DNA from: a virus
Taxonomy: Duplodnaviria; Caudoviricetes
Reading direction: 5' to 3' (one strand)
IMG/VR virus record: IMGVR_UViG_3300036770_007283
Length of the DNA stretch: 64,000 bases
This document shows positions 19,103-46,159 of this stretch, piece by piece (within the stretch, counting starts at the first letter, position 1; the number at the start of each line of letters is the position of its first letter). The notes beneath the pieces are model-generated. The model was not told the origin of the DNA and ran no database searches. It worked only from the letters and a program-made list of their open reading frames with translations. The position numbers and the translations under genes were made by a program.

Positions 19103-21958
19103 TCACATTCTTAGTCTAGGTGCAAATGCTAGCGTTGGCTTTGGCATGTTAGATTTTTCTTTTGTACCAGGTTTAACTGTAAAACCCTGTGTAGAATCAA
19201 ACTTCCAAGCCATATAGGCATACATTAAAGCCATCAACCCATCGTTAGGCGTTGAGCCTTTAATATAAGTTTTTACTTCTTGACCACCTTTATTTCTAAT
19301 GGCAACACCCATTGATGTACAATGATCTATTAACCATTCGATATATTCATAGCTTTTCCAAGGGAACCTAATCTTACCCTTTTTCATTTTTTCAAAGATC
19401 TCCTCAATCATAAGATCTTTATTATAAGTAATCATCAATTCATCTTCACGATATTTAATTGGATTTAAAAGAGCGGCACTACCTTGTGCTCCTAAAAATC
19501 TATCACCAAATCCATCATTCATCTGCAATTCTCTAACAACATCTTGTCCGAAGAAAAAGTCGGAGACCCCGCGCTTGACAGAAAATCTTTTGAATAACTC
19601 ATTAACTGTGGCTTTCTTATATCCGAAAGTTCTTTCTCTTAAAATGTGCGCATGCTCTATTTGAAGTGTTCCATCACCAATGTCAGATAAGATTACTGCA
19701 CAAGAATAAGATTGACCCTTAGATTCTTCGTCAGTTTTATCTCCCCAGTCTATTCCTAGGTAGGCAGGTCTTTCATTCGCTAATATTTTCTTTGCAAAGA
19801 ATCTTTCAGAATCTTTACAGAATGCTTCTATATGGGTTCTGGTCAATGGCATTCCACCACTAGAGAAAAATTCTCCAACAACTTCATTATTCCAAACACG
19901 GTCTGATTGATTTGGATTATTTTCTGGCATCAAAGAGTTTATATATTCACGATTAAGGTATGGAATATATAACTGATTAATGTGAAATCCTACATACTTA
20001 GACTCTTCTTCATTTCTGGAGGGTGCCCAGCAACCTCTTTCAATAGCATCAATCTTGTGCTGAATAAAACCGCAAATAGGACATTTGATATTAAAACCGC
20101 TAATCCAAATTTCTTTCCAAGCATCACTACCTGGCTGATAAAATGGAAAAGTTTTTTCACAATTTTTACAGCCAAGATGATAAAACCTTTGGTCTGACAT
20201 TTCCCAGGTAAGTTCAAACCAGCTACCTTTTTCTTTTGGTGTTCCAAAGTAGACCTGGACACCACGACCTACTGGACCATATTTTGCGGCGGTCAGAGTC
20301 TTGGTAGAGTTACCTATTGCAAGTCCCATCATATCTTGACAATTATGGACAACAGGACCGCCAGCATATTTGCTATTTTTAGTTGGAGACAATATAAAAT
20401 TATGATTTTCTTCGACCTCTATATCATATACAACTTCTTGCTTTTCTAATTTTTTTATTTTATCTACAATTAATATAGAATAATTTTTAAAATTATTATC
20501 CCAAGTATAATTGTCAAATTCATTTAAGAAAAGATTTCCAAACTTATAAGTCATTGTGGGATGAATATATTTTTTAATTAAGTTATATAGATTAAAAAAT
20601 CCTGCTTTGTTAAAATAAATATAAAAATATCCATCAGACTGTTTTTTATAATGACAATCTATACCTAGACTTTTAAATTTATTTACAAATCTAATCTGAG
20701 AGTCTTCATCAAAAGAACATGTTGATAAATATGCAGCTCCAGATGTAGGACCCCAAGATTTTATTAGAGAACCATCATCCATAAACCATATTGCAAGACC
20801 TCTCTCATCAATTTCATCGAGAACCCATTGTGGACAACTATATTTAGTTTTAGGAAAATTATTGTTAATGGCAAATAATTTTGATGCAAAGCTAACCGCT
20901 TCTTTCTTTGAAAAACCATTTTGTTTGATATATTTAATTTGAGAATTAAACATATCAGATTTCCAATTACAATATTCTTTTTGCTTTATGCCATGTACAA
21001 CCTGTAGTCTATATACATTGTCTTTATATCTACTAAGATGACCATCTCCTAAAAATGAACCTAGAGCGATTTGCTTTTGGTCATCATTAATTGCTCTAAT
21101 TTTCAAATCAGAATCTACAGAGGATATAATCAAATCATTATTGCTTAAGTTACATGCTTCTTTCCAACCACCAGTTGTTAAAAACTTATGATTTGGAGTA
21201 CATTTTATCTCTCTATTACCAATATATAGCTTCAATAGTTCCCTTGGACTTCTCTTCCAGGCGTTAGTTATTTTTTTATATTCAAAACGTTCCATTTTTT
21301 CATTATAAGATTTAACCATAGGAAGTTGATTTCCACTTTTAAATTCTTGATATAGTTTTCCAATTTTAACTTTACCGCCATCCGTCTCTATAAATTGATG
21401 GTATGGAAAACATTCGTCATAAAAGGCAACGTCCAATGTCATACCACGAACCCTGTCTGCATCTGCACCGATACTTTCAACCCATAACGTACCAGTGTTA
21501 AATTGCTTCATGGTTAAATTATCAACAGCATTTATTGTTCTTAATTTATTTTTATTGACGAAATCATCTTTTGCACTTCTAACAAGATTTTCTAATTTAT
21601 CTTGTGTAAATCTTTTTACTTGCGCTAATGCAGGAAATAAATGCGCTACACGAATTGGTGGCGTTGTAAAAAGACCACTATTAGTAAAGTAAAGGTCTAA
21701 GGCACCAGCCATCATAGTTGCACCAACCTGACGGCCTTTCTTAATAATTACAGGCTTACCCTCCTTCTTTGGAGCTTGAAGGGCAACATAACGATAGATA
21801 TCAGCCATAAATTTCCAGCCATTGCCCACAATACGAAAAGGCTCACCATCCAAGGTAAGATTATTTTGGATGAAATGAGCCGGATCGTAATCTAAGAATG
21901 TTGTTTTTAGCTGCGAAAATATTTTATTTTGTTCTTGCTTAAAATCACTTCCTGCCAT
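19103..21958 (-). CDS. terL: Terminase large subunit interrupted by an intein
   Basis: Walker A IKKGRQVGAT, Walker B DVAFYDE|CQD once the intein is removed, coupling motif YFGTP, and RNase H-like nuclease YLGIDWG...NDGLMAL. Confidence 0.92.
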   Translation of the reverse strand: MAGSDFKQEQNKIFSQLKTTFLDYDPAHFIQNNLTLDGEPFRIVGNGWKFMADIYRYVALQAPKKEGKPVIIKKGRQVGATMMAGALDLYFTNSGLFTTPPIRVAHLFPALAQVKRFTQDKLENLVRSAKDDFVNKNKLRTINAVDNLTMKQFNTGTLWVESIGADADRVRGMTLDVAFYDECFPYHQFIETDGGKVKIGKLYQEFKSGNQLPMVKSYNEKMERFEYKKITNAWKRSPRELLKLYIGNREIKCTPNHKFLTTGGWKEACNLSNNDLIISSVDSDLKIRAINDDQKQIALGSFLGDGHLSRYKDNVYRLQVVHGIKQKEYCNWKSDMFNSQIKYIKQNGFSKKEAVSFASKLFAINNNFPKTKYSCPQWVLDEIDERGLAIWFMDDGSLIKSWGPTSGAAYLSTCSFDEDSQIRFVNKFKSLGIDCHYKKQSDGYFYIYFNKAGFFNLYNLIKKYIHPTMTYKFGNLFLNEFDNYTWDNNFKNYSILIVDKIKKLEKQEVVYDIEVEENHNFILSPTKNSKYAGGPVVHNCQDMMGLAIGNSTKTLTAAKYGPVGRGVQVYFGTPKEKGSWFELTWEMSDQRFYHLGCKNCEKTFPFYQPGSDAWKEIWISGFNIKCPICGFIQHKIDAIERGCWAPSRNEEESKYVGFHINQLYIPYLNREYINSLMPENNPNQSDRVWNNEVVGEFFSSGGMPLTRTHIEAFCKDSERFFAKKILANERPAYLGIDWGDKTDEESKGQSYSCAVILSDIGDGTLQIEHAHILRERTFGYKKATVNELFKRFSVKRGVSDFFFGQDVVRELQMNDGFGDRFLGAQGSAALLNPIKYREDELMITYNKDLMIEEIFEKMKKGKIRFPWKSYEYIEWLIDHCTSMGVAIRNKGGQEVKTYIKGSTPNDGLMALMYAYMAWKFDSTQGFTVKPGTKEKSNMPKPTLAFAPRLRM
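20342..21412 (-). mobile_element. Contiguous intein (357 aa) with LAGLIDADG homing endonuclease in TerL
   Basis: Begins CFPYHQ, block B CTPNHKF, LAGLIDADG motifs IALGSFLGDGHL and LAIWFMDDGSL, block F VYDIEVEENHNF, ends VVHN, +1 Cys. Confidence 0.93.
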
Positions 21959-37183: not shown

Positions 37184-37713
37184 CAGGTACTCCTATTGAT
37201 ACCCTTGAACCCACCACGCTTAGAATGAATCGGTGCCTCTTTTCCAAGATTAGGGTTGGTTAAAACCCTCTGTTGATGTAACTTTCTTAGTCGCTCAGCC
37301 TTGTTAGATAAATCTTCTGGTAGAACATTACCATCATCATCTAACTGATCTAAGTGTTCTGCGTATTCTTTTTCAATCTCACTACGAATATCATCCTCTT
37401 CAACATAGTCAGATTCTTCAGAAGTGGCAATCACCTGACGGGCTGGTTTAGCACTTAAAGAGATATCTTCTAAAATCTGCTTCCCGATCCCACCCTTTAA
37501 TTCATTAAAGAAGAATAAAGAAATGTCATAAATCTGTGATTCGGTGAAAGAAGAAGAAAAACGTTCGGCACTAATTTTGTTCTGAATTAAAGTAATAATA
37601 TTGGTGTCACGATTTGAAAAAAGGCTAGAACCACAAGAAGGGCATAAATTCTTCATCAAGGCAAATCGCATTGATTCGTTAACGCCAAAACCACATTCAT
37701 TACAGTGCATCAT
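37183..37713 (-). CDS. Zinc-ribbon hypothetical protein
   Basis: N-terminal CNECG...CPSCG; 4-bp overlap with dnaE-C. Confidence 0.6.
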   Translation of the reverse strand: MMHCNECGFGVNESMRFALMKNLCPSCGSSLFSNRDTNIITLIQNKISAERFSSSFTESQIYDISLFFFNELKGGIGKQILEDISLSAKPARQVIATSEESDYVEEDDIRSEIEKEYAEHLDQLDDDGNVLPEDLSNKAERLRKLHQQRVLTNPNLGKEAPIHSKRGGFKGINRST

Positions 37714-38744
37714 ACTTTTTTTCCTAAGGCACTTTCAAGTAGGGAAAGTGACAAACCCTTTTGTTCCATATATTCATCTACCTTACAAATAGCCCTGATT
37801 GGTAAGCCGTCAGTTAGAACCGTCATATATTTATCATAATCATCTTGCCAAACGGTTAATTCGGCGGTGGAACCTTCTGCATCCTCGACTAAATACTTGG
37901 CAAATTTTCTACCTATATTTTTACCACGTTTAATTTTAAATTCCTTAACCATAGCCTTGATAATTACTTCAATCTTAACCTTAGTTCCAGAAGGAATCTG
38001 GGGGATCTTTCTCAATGGCGTAACATTAGAATCCTGCCGAAAGAAACCTTTGAAAACCTCATGGAGAGAACCGCTGATTGTTCTGCCCAAAACCTCTCTC
38101 TCGTTGGTGAGCAGATCCTTGCGCTCCCATTCTTCATGGTACGTAGGGAATACAATGTCATCAATAGTTTTTCCTTTCTTTTTTTCTTTATTGATCAAAT
38201 CACGATAATGTGAGTGGTTTTCAAAAATATCCTTTCTGGTTCTTCCAAAAGAAGTAAAAGCACCAGCCTTAGACATTGACTCCATGACTCTTTTATTTAC
38301 TACCCTTGCATTTGTTCTAAAGAAAAAATCCTCAATCGAAGCAAAGGGTTGCAATGAGATGATTTCTTGAATTGCAGTATCGCCAACACCCTTAATCGCT
38401 GTTAAGCCTGTAACAATAGTTCCATCTTCCTTGGTAACATAACTGCCGGTGCTTTTGTTAACATCTGGTGGGGTAATGGAAATGCCCATCTTGGAGCATT
38501 CGGAAATATATTCTAAGGTTTTATCAGAGTTAGGATCCTCGCTGTTAAGCAATGCACACATAAATTGTGTAGGATAATGACATCTCAACCAAGCAGTATA
38601 ATAAGAAATATGTGAATAAGAAACTGAGTGAGAATTAGAAGTAAGCATACCGTTAGATAAATAATATTGGTGATCAGGATGCTCTACTTCTAGATCATAA
38701 GTATCCATCATCCCAACTTCTTTTACTGATTTAATTTTAGCCAA
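37710..38744 (-). CDS. dnaE: DNA polymerase III alpha, C-terminal half, fused to a split-intein C-fragment
   Basis: After 37 aa of IntC the sequence continues SHSVSYSHISYYTAWLRCHYPTQFMCALL, PPDVNKS, HhH GLTAIKGVG, ERE.LG and an OB fold. TTG start with an AGGAGG RBS. Confidence 0.95.
   Translation of the reverse strand: MAKIKSVKEVGMMDTYDLEVEHPDHQYYLSNGMLTSNSHSVSYSHISYYTAWLRCHYPTQFMCALLNSEDPNSDKTLEYISECSKMGISITPPDVNKSTGSYVTKEDGTIVTGLTAIKGVGDTAIQEIISLQPFASIEDFFFRTNARVVNKRVMESMSKAGAFTSFGRTRKDIFENHSHYRDLINKEKKKGKTIDDIVFPTYHEEWERKDLLTNEREVLGRTISGSLHEVFKGFFRQDSNVTPLRKIPQIPSGTKVKIEVIIKAMVKEFKIKRGKNIGRKFAKYLVEDAEGSTAELTVWQDDYDKYMTVLTDGLPIRAICKVDEYMEQKGLSLSLLESALGKKV
38634..38744 (-). mobile_element. 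Split intein C-fragment (IntC, 37 aa)
   Basis: MAKIKSVKEVGMMDTYDLEVEHPDHQYYLSNGMLTSN|S: block F YDLEV..H, block G TSN, +1 Ser. Confidence 0.93.
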
Positions 38745-38752
38745 AAAACCTC

Positions 38753-39559
38753 CTAGTTTGGTTCTGGTGTCCCATTTATTTCTAGATTCAGAAATTCATC
38801 CATCTCTTCTGAACTAGTACTGGGTCCAAAAATTCTTTCGTTAGCTATTTTAATATACTTCTCTTCTTGTTCAATTAAGATAAAATCTCTATCTAAATTC
38901 TTGCAGGCTACACCCGTCGTTCCACTTCCCGCGCAATTATCTAAAACTATTTCCCCAGGGTTGGTATAAGTCTTTATTAAATATTCAAATAAAGAAACCG
39001 GCTTCACCGTAGGATGAGAACCGCTAGTATCGGTATTAAATTTCTGCCAAGAAGACGGGACCCTTAATTCTGGAACTTCGACAATACCACGGCCTTTGAA
39101 TTTTCTATAGTTTTCAGACCTGGTGTTATGATCTTTACGATATCGCTTTGTATGCTTCTTACCAGTGGCAGATGTTCTTTCCTGCATCTGCTTGTTATAA
39201 GTCCATTTTCCTCTTGAAAAAATTAGAACCTGCTCATGCTCTTTGAAAGGTTCTCTGACTGTATTTGCAAAATTACTTCCACGATTTTTAATCCAAATCC
39301 ATTCGTGACGAAACATCTTTGGGTTAGACATAACTAAAGCACTAGAAAAAGGTTGGGAAGCAGTCAGGGCTATAACTGCATTAGGTTTTGTAATTCTTTT
39401 ATATTGTTCCCAAAGTTTATCAAAAGGGATTACTGTATCCCATTTGTTTTGGGTAATTCCATAAGGTAAATCACAAAGAATCATATCTATGGAACCATCA
39501 TCTATCTTCTTCATTACTTCTAAGCAATCACCCTGATATATCTTGTTTTTTTCTAGCAT
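38753..39559 (-). CDS. DNA N4-cytosine/N6-adenine methyltransferase (beta class)
   Basis: IYQGDCLEVMK, ILCDLPYG, HPTVKPVSLFEYLIKTYTNPG, VLDNCAGSGTT. Its stop codon overlaps the dnaE-C RBS. Confidence 0.92.
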   Translation of the reverse strand: MLEKNKIYQGDCLEVMKKIDDGSIDMILCDLPYGITQNKWDTVIPFDKLWEQYKRITKPNAVIALTASQPFSSALVMSNPKMFRHEWIWIKNRGSNFANTVREPFKEHEQVLIFSRGKWTYNKQMQERTSATGKKHTKRYRKDHNTRSENYRKFKGRGIVEVPELRVPSSWQKFNTDTSGSHPTVKPVSLFEYLIKTYTNPGEIVLDNCAGSGTTGVACKNLDRDFILIEQEEKYIKIANERIFGPSTSSEEMDEFLNLEINGTPEPN

Positions 39560-39678
39560 TTCAAAATCCCGTAGGTTAGGTATAGCTAGTATACCTAGAG
39601 CAATCCTAATATTACTCTATTTTTAGAACCAAGTTTGGAAAACTTAAACCAACTTCATTTATACTCAAAAATATATTT

Positions 39679-40932
39679 TTATTGAACTATTCTTAGCTTA
39701 GTTGTGCTGACGTTAGTTATTTCACAATCTTGTTCTTCATCACCACGAGGTACCTGGCTTGATAATCCAGAAGCTAAAGTAATGTTGTGATTGCCATTAG
39801 CGTTAATAACATCAGCAACTATAGAACCATAAAAAGAAGCATTGCCATTTGGGTAGACTGTTGATTCTGGTGCATAAATGGTTCCATTAAAAGTGCTAGA
39901 GCCATTTATTCTAACTACTCTTTCACCAATAACCCTTATCTCAAAACACTCCGGATGATCTGCATTGCCAGTAACACCACCATTTAAATTTACATTACCA
40001 TTAACATATAAAATGGTTGGACTAGTACATCCATCAGATGTGCCAGAAATATTAATCATTTCTCTTGCCGTTCTTTGCTCCAAATCACCATCAACATAAT
40101 AAACTTCACCTTCTTGAAGTGTAGTGACTATAGTTGTATTAGAACCCCTACCCACACGAACACCATTAGGTAGGGCATGATAACTTTCAGGATAATCCAC
40201 TGGACTGATTGGAATTTCCATACCCATAGGTGTAGAGTCGCCTGTGAAGTTATAAGCAGAACCCCTAGAGTCTATGCAAGGGGTTCCTACATCATATTCA
40301 CAATCTGGACCCATATGAATATCTATTCCGTTTTGTACATTAAGACTACCGCCCAAAGTTATCCCACCGGAGTTAGTACAAGCAGATGCGCCGGCAGTTA
40401 CCTCATCTATTCTTAGATCAAAATTTCCACTTAGTTCCAATTGAGAATTGGCAAAGATTAAGCAGGGCCAATCACCATCGTTAGTAGGGACACACTCTTC
40501 TTCTAAGGTAGCAACCTTACCAGCAATAGAAGTTGCATGAACATGGTAAGTATAGTATCCAAACATTCCACCAAATATAGATGGAATATTGGATTCTGTA
40601 GTTATTTTTACATAATCACCATTATCCATATCTAAGATCCACTCACCACCTTGATTAAAGGTACCAATTTCAGTGGTAACATTTTCAGAGGTTATAGTGG
40701 CTCCATAGACGGTATGGCTTGTAGCAATAGAGGTTGCTTCTTCAGATACAGTAGTAGTGTTATTACTACCATCATCTTCACTGCCAAGATAGGCGGCGGA
40801 AGAAATTGCGGAAGTATCTGCGGCAGTTTGCAACTGCGCCTTAGAATAAGTCATAAGACCATAATCTATGGAAAGCGCTGCAAATCCAATAAATATGGGA
40901 AGTGAAATACTAAAATAAGTAGCAGTAGACAT
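39679..40932 (-). CDS. TadG/TadE-like pilin-domain protein with C-terminal beta-rich domain
   Basis: N-terminal FSISLPIFIGFAALSIDYG...AQLQTAADTSAISSA matches the Tad/Flp pilus-assembly N-terminal domain. C-terminal FNGTIYAPESTV...FYGSIVAD repeats. Confidence 0.8.
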   Translation of the reverse strand: MSTATYFSISLPIFIGFAALSIDYGLMTYSKAQLQTAADTSAISSAAYLGSEDDGSNNTTTVSEEATSIATSHTVYGATITSENVTTEIGTFNQGGEWILDMDNGDYVKITTESNIPSIFGGMFGYYTYHVHATSIAGKVATLEEECVPTNDGDWPCLIFANSQLELSGNFDLRIDEVTAGASACTNSGGITLGGSLNVQNGIDIHMGPDCEYDVGTPCIDSRGSAYNFTGDSTPMGMEIPISPVDYPESYHALPNGVRVGRGSNTTIVTTLQEGEVYYVDGDLEQRTAREMINISGTSDGCTSPTILYVNGNVNLNGGVTGNADHPECFEIRVIGERVVRINGSSTFNGTIYAPESTVYPNGNASFYGSIVADVINANGNHNITLASGLSSQVPRGDEEQDCEITNVSTTKLRIVQ

Positions 40933-40990
40933 TTTGTATACCTAGAATTTGTTATTTATAGTTACAATAAATATTGAAAAATATTCTTTT

Positions 40991-42205
40991 TCAAGATTTA
41001 ATCTCTGTTTTCTGGGCAACAGGGACTATACACTCCTGTTCTAAAGGTAACCAATAAAATCCTGTTCTATTAATCCCCTTTAATCGTTGTTCCCTGCTAA
41101 TTGCAGGCAACTGAAGGGCAATATTCTGGGATGCATTTAAATCCGAGTTTCCTGTGTATCCACAGGATCTGCATTTAAATAACAATCCTTTCCTATTCCC
41201 CTTACGAACCCAACCGCACTGGAAACACCTTTGACTTGTGTAAGTAGGGCTAACCTTAATAATCTGGACACCAGCATCTTTAAGTTTAGAATCCAACTTT
41301 TCAAATAGTTCCCTGTAATTCCAATGAGAAAGGTTGCGGCTTGACTTTCTTCCCTTTCTCATATTTCTAATGTTCTCCCTTCTAACTACCTTTATATTCT
41401 GTATATTCAGTCTGTTTACAGACCAATTTATGTAGTTAGTACGGTGTGCTTCTGCTCTCCTAAATCCCTTGGAACCCTTTTTCTTCCTTGCTAATTTTTG
41501 ACAAATAGCTTTGTAATTGTGACCATGGTTATCCTTGTCAACTACTTGACCATTTGAACAAGACAAAATAGAATTTTGCCCTATATCTATCCCTAGGGTT
41601 TCCCCAGATTCCCTTTCTCTAGGTTCCTCCAATTCAAAACCAAACGTTATGGAATCTTTTGATAACCTAACTCCTGCTTTTAGTGTTCCTGAGGCTAACA
41701 TTTTATTGAAGTGCTTTGTTTTCTTAAAAGGTATCTTTATAGTTAGCTTATTACCAAGAGAAGATAGGGTTACCCAACCATCGAAGATGGTATCATTATC
41801 CAAGTCTATTTTAACAAACCTAGAATCTAACTCTGGTTTAATATCTCCAACTAAAGGCTTTGAAGCAATATTTTTGTTATAGATTTGCTGAATTTTTCTG
41901 GCTTTCTTAAACATACCTTGAGCATTGAACTTATTTATTTGCCAAAGCCTTCGGCTTTGTTTAGCTTTAGTTCCACGGACAATAGCAGAAGCCTGTTTAC
42001 CAGCAGCTTGCAATGCTCTTGCAGATAACCAAGTTTGAATCTGGGAAGTTATTCTCTTATCAAGCAGGGCAGGAATTTTATCCATATCCCAAAGGGGATC
42101 TATGAAAAGGGTAGTAACCCTCTGGTATTCTGCAATAAAAAGGGAAAGGTTTTCCATTTTAACCTTTCTGCAGAATTTGGTAGTTACTTTAGTTGACTTT
42201 ACCAT
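40991..42205 (-). mobile_element. tnpB: TnpB-family RNA-guided nuclease without an adjacent transposase (IS1341-like/solo tnpB)
   Basis: RuvC-I GIDIG, RuvC-II RRENI, zinc finger CFQCG...CRSCG, RuvC-III NSDLNASQNI. All three acidic catalytic positions are present. Confidence 0.9.
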
Positions 42206-42264
42206 GATTTATATAGAAATATTACTATAATTTTAAATTTATTTTAATAAATAATATAAAGGAA

Positions 42265-42723
42265 TCAAATACATTCTTCAGAGCAGAAGTTACCCTCTTC
42301 ACCACATACTATAAAAGTATTAGGAATTACACCTTTACATTTATAAGTCTTCATTTTTTTAGTCCATTCCTCTTTGGTTTGGCATTCTTCTAAGGAAATT
42401 AATAAAGCCTCCACTTCGTTGGTTTCTTTTAAAATAAAAGTCATCCAGCCTTGGAAGTTACCAACCCGCCAAACATTTGCACCGAAATGGTAAGCATACA
42501 AATCTTCTTTTTGAAAGTGTTCCCTATTTAATTTTATTAAGCCACCTAATGTAGCATGGTCACTGAAGTCTGGAATGGCACCATCCGGTGGCAACAAGCC
42601 TTCATCATTAATCCTACCACAAATATTTATATCAAGTGGAAAAAACCAACGCATACCTGGCAACCACTTCCAATTCTTACAGATTAAAGTTTTGAGTCCT
42701 AAATCTATTTTGTCTTGCAGCAT
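42265..42723 (-). CDS. Hypothetical protein
   Basis: 152 aa; CKNWKWLPGM...PDFSDHATLGGL pattern typical of phage accessory ORFs. Confidence 0.55.
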   Translation of the reverse strand: MLQDKIDLGLKTLICKNWKWLPGMRWFFPLDINICGRINDEGLLPPDGAIPDFSDHATLGGLIKLNREHFQKEDLYAYHFGANVWRVGNFQGWMTFILKETNEVEALLISLEECQTKEEWTKKMKTYKCKGVIPNTFIVCGEEGNFCSEECI

Positions 42724-42749
42724 GTTATTTATCTTTTGTCCAAATTATT

Positions 42750-43070
42750 TTAGTTACTATCTAATGCTGCTCTAACTGCTGCATCTTTAGATTCTAGCAA
42801 TTTTCTAAGTGCAACTTCTGTTTCAGGGCTATAAGGCGCTCGTCTAGCAACTTGTTCGGCCAACTCAGCAAATGGTCTTGAAACCTCTTGTAACTTTGGT
42901 GGTAAATGATCAAATTTGAAATATTTTAAAGTTGGTGATAATTGGTATTGACTATAAACAACCAAATCATTTAAAGTCGGTACTGGCATAGAAACCATAA
43001 CCTCACCAGAACGAACCTTGGCACATCCATTTGCCATACAATCTGGATTTGCACAACAGCATGTAATCAT
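42750..43070 (-). CDS. Small helical-hairpin protein with Cys-rich N-terminus
   Basis: YFKFDHLPPKLQEVSRPFAELA...ETEVALRKLLESKDAAVRAAL; GAGG RBS. Confidence 0.6.
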   Translation of the reverse strand: MITCCCANPDCMANGCAKVRSGEVMVSMPVPTLNDLVVYSQYQLSPTLKYFKFDHLPPKLQEVSRPFAELAEQVARRAPYSPETEVALRKLLESKDAAVRAALDSN

Positions 43071-43115
43071 ATAAACTCCTCCCTTTAAATTGTTTTACAA
43101 ATTAAACTAAGATTT

Positions 43116-43433
43116 TCATCCATAATGTTCGCTATTTTTAATTGCTGTAATTATATCTTCATAAGCAGCAGCGCACAGCGGAATGTCAGCAGATTCCATT
43201 CTTTTGTTGAGAAATTCTAAGATTAATTTTCTCTCTCGCATTTCTCCCAAAACCTCACTGGCTTCTGGTGGTGGCCAAGACGATCTTGCTTCATAATCCT
43301 GAATTATATTATCTGCTTTGCTTACTAGTTGCCAGACCCATTCTGCTGCAAACTCTTTATCCTCCAGCCTAAGAAAAAACTCCTCAATAAAATCATCTTT
43401 TGTGTACAGCATAACACCCTCACTTATTAACAA
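43116..43433 (-). CDS. Hypothetical protein
   Basis: Likely start at the ATG at 43412 (GAGG RBS), just after the dnaE-N stop. Confidence 0.55.
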   Translation of the reverse strand: MLISEGVMLYTKDDFIEEFFLRLEDKEFAAEWVWQLVSKADNIIQDYEARSSWPPPEASEVLGEMRERKLILEFLNKRMESADIPLCAAAYEDIITAIKNSEHYG

Positions 43434-46074
43434 CTATTTCTAATTTATCTTCTAAAATTTTCCAGAGCGGCAACATTTCGCCTGTATTAGTTCTAAATTT
43501 ATGATTGATTGTACAAACTGTTTTTGAGCCATCGTCTAATTCTACTTCAAATACTTTTAATTTTCCGTGATAATGATTATCCTTGACAGGGATCATAATA
43601 TCTTGTCCCGTTTCTTCATTTCTGCTACGAACCCAACAGCCTGGTTCAACATTTCTGATTGGAATATCTTTCCACTCTCTAGCATCAGAATCTCTGTATA
43701 CCCGGATTAATTCATCAAACTTCAAGGAGCGATTAAAGCCATATAATCCGAATGGTTCGATTTGCTCATCCCAAATTCTTTTGGCTTCTTCATATTTCAT
43801 ACCAGATACTTTCATGCAGTCAGCAATAAAGTTAGCCTCTGTTTTTAAAACTAGATCTGGATCTTTACCTTTTAATTTTGTAATTTTCCTTAGTGCATCT
43901 GCTTGGTTAAGATCCCAACCTGCACAATCCTTGGCAATGGTCATCATGCCTTCTTCATAAAGAGAAACACCATAAGTCTTCTTTAATGAATTTTCCATTT
44001 TAGGATGGATGTATTCGATTTCTTCTACTCCAAGTTTTCTGTTGATATAATCGTTCCTCTGTTCTGGTGAACAAGAAGGTCTGCCTAGTGCATTAATGTC
44101 AGAAATTTCTTCAATATTTTTTGGCTTAATCTTCATACAAAGTGGGGTAAGTGATGACTCCAATTGAAAGACGCCGGCAGTTTCACCACGTCCAATCATT
44201 TTAAAAGTTTCTGTATCACCTAAGGGAATATCTTCAATAGTTATTTTTTTACTTTTGGTTTCTTGAATTATATTAAAGGTATCAGTAATTACGTTTAATG
44301 TATTTAGACCAAGAAGATCCATTTTAACTAGACCGAAATCTTCGCACCTAGTTTTCTCCCATTGGGTAACCACCAAGCCGGTTTCTGCATCAATTCTAAG
44401 GGGGACAATCTCGTATAGTGGACGATCACTAATTACAACCCCAGCGGCATGAACACTCCAATTCCTTGTCAGTCCTTGAAGCTTGCAGGCATTTTCATAT
44501 AGTTCTGGATATTTCTTCATATATGAAGCAAACTCTTTACTTTCTTTCATTGCCTGTTCTACTGTCTCTGTATCTGGCATGATAGAAGTTAAATGATTTG
44601 CAATTTTAAAGGCTTCTGATTTATCACCACCTAGCTCTAGACTTCTAGCTACGTCTTTAATAATCACCTTTGGTGACAGTGTAGACCAATTGCTGATGGA
44701 AGCGACTTTATCTTCCCCATATTTTTCTTTCAGATATTCTTTCACCTTGGCCGGGTCTGCGAAGTCTGAGTCAATATCTGGAAAGCTTTTCTTTTCTTTA
44801 TTCTGAAATCTTTCAAACAGGAGGTCGTACTTAATGGGGTCAACTGTAGTGATGCCAGTTAAAAATGCAACAATAGAGCCGGCACAACTTCCTCTTGCAG
44901 GCGAGCAAGGCATTCCTTGTGACTTAGCCCAATTTACGAAGTCTGCCACAATAAGCATATAAGAAGAAAAGTTTTTCTCTTCCATTACACTTAATTCTTT
45001 TTTAACCCTATCCCAGTATTCTTTCTTCTGTTCATCTTCTAGATGGCCTAATTTTTCTTTAAATCCGGCCATACATTTATATCTCAAATAGGACTTATCT
45101 TCTTCTATATCAGGACAAACCTTGGAAGACCAACCCTTAAATTTTTGATATTCGTTTTCTTTTTGAACTGGAAACTTAGGAAGAATCGCACCCTTTGGTT
45201 CAATATAGGTAGGATTATCACAGGCGTTTAAAATCTTGATAGAATTCTCCATGCCTTTCTTGGCAACATCTGGACCAAAGAAGGATGTAATTTCTTCATA
45301 TGTTTTAAGGTACATATCTTGCACGCCATAACGAAATCTATCAGGATCGTTGATTGGCTTTTTGTCTTTAATAGCTAACATAAAATCGTGATACTTGGCA
45401 TGGTCTTTATCTCGATAGTGGGCATCACAAGTAATAACATAGGGGATGCTCTTATCATGCGATAGTCGAATCATTGCTTCATTTAGCTTTCTCTGGCTAA
45501 CTTCCTTGCCAGTTTTGCCTGTAGCCTGGAGGTCATGTGGCTGGATTTCAAGAAAGAATCTATCTTTAAAAATAGCATTAAATCGATCAAGATAACAAAG
45601 AGCTTCTTGCTCATTTCCTTCTGTAATTAAAGTTTTGGCAATCAAACCATTAGAACAAGCGGTAAGGGCAATAACACCCTGGTTGAACTGCTCGATATGT
45701 TCCCAAGAAATTCTGGGCGTTTGTTTACCCATATACCCAGAGACTTGGTTGCGGTAAGCCTCATAATTTAGTCGTAGAATATTTCGATAACCTACTTCAT
45801 TTTGTGCAAGTAGAACAAGGTGATAATTCTTCTTATCAGATAGATCTGGTGCGAAGTACGCCTCCATACCTGGAATTAACTTAACGCCATGCTTCTTACT
45901 TGCTTTCCAAGCATCAAAAATAGCTGTCATAGTACCATGATCTGTGACTGCTACGCCTGGATGATCTACTTCTTTAGCGCGAATAAAAAGGTCTTCCACA
46001 TCATTCATACCATCCAAAGGTGAACCCAATTCAGTATGGTTGTGCAAAGACACAAATGGTCCTGAAATACCCAT
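43420..46074 (-). CDS. dnaE: DNA polymerase III alpha, N-terminal half (PHP + palm + fingers), fused to a split-intein N-fragment
   Basis: PHP motifs LHNHT, TDHG, CDAHY; RGSCAGS; catalytic PDIDSDF; HAAGVVI; KMDLLGL. The extein ends LYGFNR at aa 782. Confidence 0.96.
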   Translation of the reverse strand: MGISGPFVSLHNHTELGSPLDGMNDVEDLFIRAKEVDHPGVAVTDHGTMTAIFDAWKASKKHGVKLIPGMEAYFAPDLSDKKNYHLVLLAQNEVGYRNILRLNYEAYRNQVSGYMGKQTPRISWEHIEQFNQGVIALTACSNGLIAKTLITEGNEQEALCYLDRFNAIFKDRFFLEIQPHDLQATGKTGKEVSQRKLNEAMIRLSHDKSIPYVITCDAHYRDKDHAKYHDFMLAIKDKKPINDPDRFRYGVQDMYLKTYEEITSFFGPDVAKKGMENSIKILNACDNPTYIEPKGAILPKFPVQKENEYQKFKGWSSKVCPDIEEDKSYLRYKCMAGFKEKLGHLEDEQKKEYWDRVKKELSVMEEKNFSSYMLIVADFVNWAKSQGMPCSPARGSCAGSIVAFLTGITTVDPIKYDLLFERFQNKEKKSFPDIDSDFADPAKVKEYLKEKYGEDKVASISNWSTLSPKVIIKDVARSLELGGDKSEAFKIANHLTSIMPDTETVEQAMKESKEFASYMKKYPELYENACKLQGLTRNWSVHAAGVVISDRPLYEIVPLRIDAETGLVVTQWEKTRCEDFGLVKMDLLGLNTLNVITDTFNIIQETKSKKITIEDIPLGDTETFKMIGRGETAGVFQLESSLTPLCMKIKPKNIEEISDINALGRPSCSPEQRNDYINRKLGVEEIEYIHPKMENSLKKTYGVSLYEEGMMTIAKDCAGWDLNQADALRKITKLKGKDPDLVLKTEANFIADCMKVSGMKYEEAKRIWDEQIEPFGLYGFNRSLKFDELIRVYRDSDAREWKDIPIRNVEPGCWVRSRNEETGQDIMIPVKDNHYHGKLKVFEVELDDGSKTVCTINHKFRTNTGEMLPLWKILEDKLEIVVNK
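43423..43728 (-). mobile_element. Split intein N-fragment (IntN, 102 aa, Ser1)
   Basis: Begins SLKFDELI, has IPIRNV, VFEVELDDG and block B CTINHKF, and ends LPLWKILEDKLEIVVNK-stop. No endonuclease. Confidence 0.92.
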
Positions 46075-46132: not shown

Positions 46133-46159
46133 ATGGGCCGCCTTATTTTGGCGGCCCAT
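46133..46159. terminator. GC-rich hairpin terminator upstream of dnaE-N
   Basis: 10-bp stem ATGGGCCGCC/GGCGGCCCAT with a 7-nt loop; T-rich flanks on both strands. Confidence 0.75.

Follow-up and report, generated by a model that had tools for sequence, protein, structure and literature searches.

How a virus whose dnaE gene is broken in two could obtain a continuous replicative DNA polymerase is the question raised by a locus in the IMG/VR virus record IMGVR_UViG_3300036770_007283, of which a stretch of 64,000 nucleotides (nt), hereafter the window, was analysed. The source record is 178 kb long at a judged completeness of ~52%, figures that suggest a large (jumbo) phage. An earlier note on this DNA had proposed that the two dnaE halves, both on the minus strand, are rejoined at the protein level by a naturally split intein that has serine at both splice junctions (Ser1 and Ser+1) and sits at a non-cyanobacterial site. 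Based on the reading frames, their relatives and structural models, we consider it highly likely that the element is a working, naturally split class 1 intein, through which a jumbo phage of subsurface or freshwater habitat assembles its only replicative polymerase.

The two dnaE halves and their splice junctions

The two open reading frames (ORFs) and their parts are given below, with lengths in amino acids (aa).

43420..46074, minus strand: dnaE-N ORF, 884 aa
43729..46074, minus strand: N-extein of dnaE, aa 1-782, with PHP, Pol III alpha catalytic and finger domains, ending ...LYGFNR
43423..43728, minus strand: N-terminal intein part (IntN), 102 aa, beginning with Ser1 (SLKFDELI, block A); stop codon at 43420..43422
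37710..38744, minus strand: dnaE-C ORF, 344 aa
38634..38744, minus strand: C-terminal intein part (IntC), 37 aa, with TTG start, blocks F/G YDLEVEHPDHQYYLSNGMLTSN and Asn37 as last residue
37713..38633, minus strand: C-extein of dnaE, aa 38-344, with HhH and OB-fold, beginning with Ser+1 (SHSVSY); stop codon at 37710..37712

In dnaE-N, Pfam identified PHP, DNA_pol3_alpha and finger domains within residues 10-754, and DnaE models matched the protein no further than residue 783. Its C-terminal region reads ...EPFGLYGFNR/SLKFDELI...VCTINHKF...EIVVNK followed by the stop codon (the slash marks a splice junction here and below), with block B, TINH, at intein positions 73-76. The dnaE-C protein, in which Pfam found HHH_6 and OB-fold domains, begins with the 37-aa IntC, MAKIKSVKEVGMMDTYDLEVEHPDHQYYLSNGMLTSN, directly followed by SHSVSY. 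Its TTG start codon lines up with the ATG starts of relatives and is preceded, at a 4-nt spacer, by an AGGAGG ribosome-binding site that shares bases with the stop codon of the methylase gene upstream. When the intein pieces are removed, the two exteins give a DnaE of 1089 aa (782 + 307) with the sequence GFNR-SHSVSY at the joint. GFNKSHS is the motif at the same position in intein-free close relatives, such as P0017, P0018 and P0037, and the +1 nucleophile of the phage intein is the native serine of this motif.

The anatomy described in the earlier note was thereby recovered. ORF translation and Pfam agreed with its coordinates for dnaE-N, the 102-aa IntN, Ser1 and TINH, and the coordinates of dnaE-C were likewise correct, with a 37-aa IntC ending in TSN before SHSVSY. 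Its sum of 782 and 307 residues holds and GFNR-SHSVSY does rebuild the motif of intein-free relatives, while the sequence has serine at both junctions, as claimed.

Intein class and the case for protein splicing

To place the element among known inteins, which the earlier note had suggested as a check, both parts were compared with sequences and structures in PDB. IntN alone matched the Npu and Ssp DnaE inteins (E value 6e-8), IntC aligned with the Npu IntC over its whole length, and the unsplit relative P0156 matched DnaE inteins with an E value of 4e-11 and the gp41-1 intein with 3e-8. The window intein shares 35% identity with the Nostoc (Npu-type) intein over 131 aligned positions, and 34-35% with the Nostoc and Crocosphaera inteins, which are 70% identical to each other; the break point is common to the window and Nostoc inteins, with 102 + 37 aa in the former and 102 + 36 aa in the latter. 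A single-sequence AlphaFold model of P0156 was unusable (predicted local distance difference test, pLDDT, 44), and a model built with the family alignment (pLDDT 87.7) was used instead, whose best Foldseek match was the NpuDnaE intein (target-normalised TM-score 0.87, E value 3e-11). For the window itself, a complex of IntN and IntC, extended by 12 and 15 extein residues, respectively, was predicted with a score of 0.86, compared with 0.04 for the best control; 51 of 78 solved complexes and two of 108 mismatched pairs reached that mark. Since similar complexes have already been solved, this prediction demonstrates likeness and not binding. In the genome scan, the split intein was missed by the Pfam Intein_splicing model. 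Sequence matches, fold model and predicted complex together indicate that the element is a class 1 split intein of the HINT fold, whose closest solved relatives, at 35% identity and with a different insertion site, are the Npu and Ssp DnaE inteins.

Conservation was then evaluated along both parts. In an alignment of 69 DnaE-C sequences, D17, E19, H25, Q26 and L34-N37 of IntC and S+1 and H+2 of the extein were invariant columns, and IntC identity held at 66-78% where that of the C-extein fell to ~30%. The block B TxxH was found in 47 of 47 DnaE-N relatives. The ratio of non-synonymous to synonymous substitution rates (dN/dS), calculated against the nearest relative, L131 (DnaE-N 90% identical), was 0.15 for IntN and 0.03 for the N-extein; it was taken from this pair and from these two parts only, dS being saturated in other comparisons. 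The 178-kb record gave one Pol III alpha (PF07733) match, and neither a family A or B polymerase nor a second family C polymerase was found in it; nor was a second dnaE found in two relatives of 91-92% completeness. Accordingly, the description of the split gene as probably essential is supported by a DnaE that is the sole detectable one in the record and by near-complete relatives that lack a second, and the contiguous full-length dnaE that might have made the halves redundant was looked for and not found in the 178-kb record at its ~52% completeness. The window stretch occurs in subsurface metagenomes, and short parts of it or its relatives occur in freshwater and lake samples.

The trans-splicing intein is thus probably functional, with the splicing itself being inferred. 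Following known class 1 intein chemistry, the two precursors, dnaE-N-IntN and IntC-dnaE-C, would each be translated from a gene of its own, the two genes being separated by 4.7 kb on one strand, and IntN and IntC would associate into a single HINT fold. Ser1 would then undergo an N-O acyl shift, Ser+1, the native serine of the DnaE GFNKSH motif, would attack the ester, Asn37 would cyclise to release the intein, and an O-N shift would yield the 1089-aa DnaE with the motif GFNR-SHS restored.

Several points weigh against a working intein that makes the only polymerase. In close comparisons, IntN evolves ~3x faster than its extein at non-synonymous sites; the predicted complex may be recall of solved Npu structures; a second polymerase may lie in the missing half of the record; none of the sequencing runs containing this stretch is from RNA; and naturally split inteins often splice poorly in vitro, once purified (PMC11923092).

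Two other explanations of the broken gene were therefore weighed. The intein pieces could serve only as a tight dimerisation module, with DnaE working as a two-chain enzyme. A precedent for such non-covalent assembly is a fragmented phage NrdA, which is reported to be put together by interaction domains of mobile-element origin (PMC3045599), and the predicted IntN/IntC interface is extensive enough to make association alone plausible. Dimerisation alone, however, would not need catalytic residues, and it is the catalytic positions (position 1, TxxH, block F Asp/His, terminal Asn and Ser+1) that are kept in more than 100 divergent relatives, which argues against mere non-covalent assembly; moreover, the break lies inside the invariant GFNKSH motif, which splicing would seamlessly restore. 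We therefore regard the two-chain enzyme as improbable. That the halves are decaying relics, with replication performed by the host or by a polymerase in the unsequenced half of the genome, is very improbable, since, although the record is only about half complete and the 4.7-kb island with TnpB can be read as a disruption by mobile DNA, neither half is damaged and purifying selection on them is strong (extein dN/dS ~0.03), 54 IMG/VR loci and many other contigs retain the same split, near-complete relatives have no other dnaE, and dnaE-C has a strong ribosome-binding site.

A phage intein family at one DnaE site and the island between the halves

Covalent reassembly by a split intein being the preferred reading, we asked how far the intein extends beyond this phage. 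When the 102-aa IntN was searched exhaustively against 1.84 billion cluster representatives, 193 matches were obtained at E <= 1e-3, and the best 146 of them (50%-identity clusters) were re-scored. Approximately 118 of these 146 clusters carry an intein, split or unsplit, at the same GFNx/ site, with position 1 always a nucleophile: Ser in 64, Cys in 37 and Thr in 17. The cyanobacterial AEY/C type was represented by only two among the re-scored best 146 of the 193 matches. With dnaE-C as query, this IntC was found in 97 proteins; it ends [TS]SN/SH[SA] in every one and is exactly 37 aa long in 89. A search with the IntN region found ~47 DnaE-N proteins with GFN[KRQL]/[SC]L. Among the viral genomes of IMG/VR, 66 loci encoding this IntC were found with an alignment query, compared with one distant locus with a single-protein query; many of them belong to contigs of 100-394 kb in which chaperonin, RecA and primase are encoded as well. 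These counts indicate that the Ser1/Ser+1 split DnaE intein is common in uncultivated phages, so that the intein is not rare in nature and the novelty seen in it by the earlier note was overstated. No characterised example of it was found in the literature searched, and the jumbo-phage intein literature contained nothing specific.

Split and unsplit forms coexist in this phage family. Unsplit mini-inteins of 144-146 aa occupy the same site in P0134, P0156 and P0159, longer unsplit inteins exist in the same interdomain region of DnaE, and empty, intein-free alleles occur among the relatives. Judged from these forms, the family presents its stages at one DnaE site, namely unsplit inteins (short or longer), inteins split with a free-standing homing endonuclease, and inteins split without one. 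Thr1 inteins are unusual, and the Thr1 and Cys1 inteins here, for example in clusters P0256, P0273, P0297 and P0301, are homologous to the Ser1 forms at the same site.

In the window, as in 54 split IMG/VR loci, the halves are collinear on one strand. The gap between them was distributed among these 54 loci as follows.

Less than 300 bp: 11 of 54 loci
429 bp: 1 of 54 loci
800-1250 bp: 39 of 54 loci
~2 kb: 2 of 54 loci
3.5 kb: 1 of 54 loci, the window's sister L131/L149

The median gap was ~920 bp, and those of the window (4675 bp) and of a second sister, L134 (6.8 kb), both exceed the 3.5 kb of L131/L149. Where the content of the gap was examined (L004 and L005), it was one ORF of 321-391 aa with weak matches to Vsr-like (DUF559), HNH and homing-endonuclease PHROG families. 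In L163 and L165, by coordinate estimate, the IntC-coding region directly adjoins the dnaE-N ORF and its stop codon (computed gap of -3 bases), and the halves appear to be parted by little more than a stop codon.

The gap in the window is filled by other genes, as listed.

38745..43419, minus strand: island between the halves, 4675 bp, with all genes on the dnaE strand
43116..43412, minus strand: small ORF, 98 aa from the ATG at 43412; in the L131 island at 87% identity
42750..43070, minus strand: 106-aa ORF, phrog_1761; common to L131 and L134
42265..42723, minus strand: 152-aa ORF; common to L131
40991..42205, minus strand: TnpB-family RNA-guided nuclease, 404 aa; single-copy in the record, without counterpart in the islands of L131 and L134
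39679..40932, minus strand: TadG/TadE-like protein with DUF7305, 417 aa; in L131 and L134 at ~55% identity
38753..39559, minus strand: N6/N4 DNA methyltransferase, 268 aa; unique to the window island

TnpB excepted, no endonuclease match was found when the six ORFs were searched against Pfam and five of them (not the methyltransferase) against PHROGs. The TnpB gene occurs once in the record and has no counterpart in the nearest relatives' islands, which makes it look like a recently inserted gene that does not belong to the conserved locus; on the same grounds it was rejected as a candidate stand-in for the homing nuclease. No tnpA was found near it. The three small ORFs and the TadG-like gene are common to the window and its sisters L131 and L134, with a spread that varies by ORF. 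The sister islands hold TadE, FeoA-like and other genes, and TnpB and the methylase occur in the window only. Because island content differs in this way among the nearest relatives, we conclude that the endonuclease slot in the window's subclade has become a variable cargo island of 3.5-6.8 kb. No terminator-like site was found after dnaE-N on the dnaE strand; just upstream of dnaE-N, at 46133..46159, a strong 10-bp GC-rich hairpin, flanked on either strand by T runs, resembles a terminator acting in both directions between dnaE-N and the preceding 138-aa gene.

Further variation was observed among the relatives. P0127 is a contiguous, intein-free DnaE with GFNIPH in place of GFNKSH, a motif that could make the site resistant to homing, and P0105, from the same 90%-identity cluster, has the split intein. 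P0285, a metagenomic protein of 440 aa without a recognised DnaE domain, contains a very similar intein (...WYGK/SLHFSEMINV; global E value 8.8e-14 to the window IntN), which suggests that this intein type may move between host genes. Seven DnaE middle pieces of 521-534 aa (P0132, P0135, P0136 on a 324-kb contig, P0142, P0157, P0160 and P0162) start with a different IntC (...THSYNI.G.AVHN/S[AS]AGSLVAY) and end with a GFNK/SL IntN; DnaE in these phages is therefore encoded as three pieces that involve two distinct split inteins. In the window DnaE-N, the site corresponding to the second intein (PARG-SCAGS) is uninterrupted. In a 309-kb IMG/VR record of 91% completeness (G006, C1:81210-86538), three or more separate ORFs within 5 kb together make up the Pol III alpha catalytic domain, indicating a dnaE that is fractured several times.

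Two other intein-bearing genes were found in the same record. Outside the window, at ~148936-152322 of contig G000:C1 (L136), a second fractured gene encodes IMPDH, whose N part ends ...VGIGGG/CLMPTTTVL, where IntN begins with Cys1; it is followed by a 364-aa ORF without Pfam match, which is probably a free-standing endonuclease, and then by an IntC (...VFLHN/SICKT) joined to the C part of IMPDH. This order of parts is the classic one described for IMPDH-type genes by Dassa et al. 2009. Inside the window, the gene at 19103..21958 on the minus strand encodes a large terminase subunit (gpA-type ATPase domain) with an unsplit intein at approximately residues 191-523 that includes a LAGLIDADG endonuclease domain.

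Origin and comparison with known inteins

To locate the phage site relative to the cyanobacterial one, cyanobacterial junctions were read from genomes. The pattern NGxIAxN-CFNKSH was matched in more than 120 cyanobacterial contigs, and in Nostoc punctiforme NIES-2108 and Crocosphaera watsonii the junctions read ...KFAEY/CLSYDTEI... and ...GFIASN/CFNKSHSTAY. The phage site therefore lies exactly four residues downstream, in agreement with the earlier note, which had placed the cyanobacterial intein, with Cys1 and Cys+1, at Y/CFNK, four residues upstream. Because the integration points differ by four residues, the phage and cyanobacterial inteins are not alleles, and the window intein was found to have none of the marks of a cyanobacterial allele, that is, neither the integration point, nor Cys1/Cys+1, nor allele-level similarity. 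The claim that the intein evolved independently is only partly right: it does not hold in the sense of an unrelated element, since the intein is homologous to the cyanobacterial DnaE inteins and has the same break point.

Whether this homology reaches back to one intein residing in dnaE was considered in both directions. There is about an even chance that the phage intein entered dnaE and split separately, its likeness to the cyanobacterial inteins reflecting membership of the same broad mini-intein group. Consistent with this, the integration points are four residues apart, gp41-1 comes almost level with Npu in similarity (E values of 3e-8 and 4e-11), split inteins in nature most often break at this point (PMC11923092), and a closely similar intein is found in P0285, whose host has no recognised DnaE domain. 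Unsplit forms, both mini (144-146 aa) and longer, also exist at the phage site, so that the split could have arisen in the phage lineage via invasion by a free-standing endonuclease (the model of PMC2677866). On the other hand, cyanobacterial DnaE inteins are the best matches both by sequence and by fold, and the two groups share the host gene, sites only four residues apart, matching lengths (102 and 36-37 aa) and a serine before the terminal asparagine. In addition, the unsplit P0156 keeps the Met-Ala-Lys-Ile of the IntC start at its junction, which suggests that some unsplit forms are re-fusions. That the GFNK/S phage family and the cyanobacterial Y/CFNK intein descend from one dnaE-resident intein whose site moved by four residues is possible but doubtful.

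If the shared ancestor were true, the Ser, Cys and Thr variation at position 1 would be a ready-made nucleophile-exchange experiment, the members with Ser1 and Ser+1 would be equivalents of the Npu DnaE intein that do not depend on thiols, and islands of 3.5-6.8 kb would illustrate the drift of a fractured gene towards the dispersed split genes of cyanobacteria. Irrespective of origin, the locus is part of a large natural family of split inteins with Ser1 and Ser+1. The nearest solved relative of these inteins is Npu DnaE, and the family also holds matched Cys1 and Thr1 variants and unsplit forms. Its host site displays the stages of empty, unsplit, split with endonuclease, split without, and, in the window, a gap filled by cargo. 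The concept is not new, and the value lies in the resource and the clear example, not in surprise. The Npu DnaE intein is widely used and very fast, and cysteine-independent split inteins are sought for ligation under oxidising conditions and alongside thiol chemistry.

The arrangement as such is of a known kind. Fractured genes in phage-like metagenomic DNA, with collinear halves that each carry half of a split mini-intein, were described by Dassa et al. 2009, among them three phage-like DnaE loci with split inteins at non-cyanobacterial integration points, one with a Vsr-like endonuclease (PMC2677866). In view of this prior report, too, the novelty was overstated in the earlier note. The inteins of that study include gp41-1, NrdJ-1 and IMPDH-1, and the NrdA and NrdJ integration points are one residue apart (PMC2677866). 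The window resembles these genes in its collinear halves with a split mini-intein, and L004 and L005 in the endonuclease-like ORF between the halves. A mark of the Dassa arrangement is a single free-standing homing endonuclease gene (GIY-YIG or Vsr-like) between the halves; in the window no homing endonuclease was recognised there, and six unrelated genes occupy the 4.7 kb. It is this large cargo island with TnpB between the halves that is particular to the window.

A second comparison concerns inteins that work without thiols. The earlier note had likened the element to the Ser1/Ser+1, thiol-independent type, and serine does stand at both junctions, but the intein is not strictly cysteine-less, IntN having two cysteines, at positions 31 and 72. 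The cysteine directly before the block B threonine (C-T-x-x-H), which is Cys72 in the window (codon at ~43513..43515), is kept in 140 of 146 relatives, and this conservation matters for any claim of thiol independence; the corresponding residue is Ala in cyanobacterial inteins and Cys in the phage family. Cysteine-less split inteins are a rare subgroup whose named examples are all PolB inteins (Aes123 PolB1, CP21, LCGC14 and GOM-OPS-1), with Ser1, Ser or Thr at +1 and oxyester intermediates (PMC11923092, PMC12707363). They resemble the window intein in being naturally split, in residing in phage DNA polymerases and in having Ser1 and Ser/Thr at +1. They differ in the host, a family B polymerase, and in an IntN of 115-120 aa compared with 102 in the window. 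The likeness between Aes123 and the window family is one of HINT fold only, Aes123 being at Foldseek rank 22 with 18% identity to the P0156 model.

The closest known system remains the Npu and Ssp DnaE inteins, which have in common with the window intein the host protein, the class 1 HINT fold, the break point (IntN 102 aa, IntC 36-37 aa) and a penultimate serine instead of histidine (IASN compared with TSN). The non-His penultimate residue pointed out in the earlier note is therefore present, but it is not a distinguishing feature, since Npu has the same Ser. The differences lie in the site, AEY/CFNKSH compared with GFNR/SHS in the window, and in the nucleophiles, Cys1/Cys+1 in Npu and Ssp and Ser1/Ser+1 in the window; the +1 cysteine of cyanobacteria stands in for the glycine of the motif, whereas +1 in the window is the native motif serine. 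Finally, the halves of the window gene are 4.7 kb apart on one phage strand, whereas those of cyanobacteria are at separate chromosomal loci (PMC2677866).

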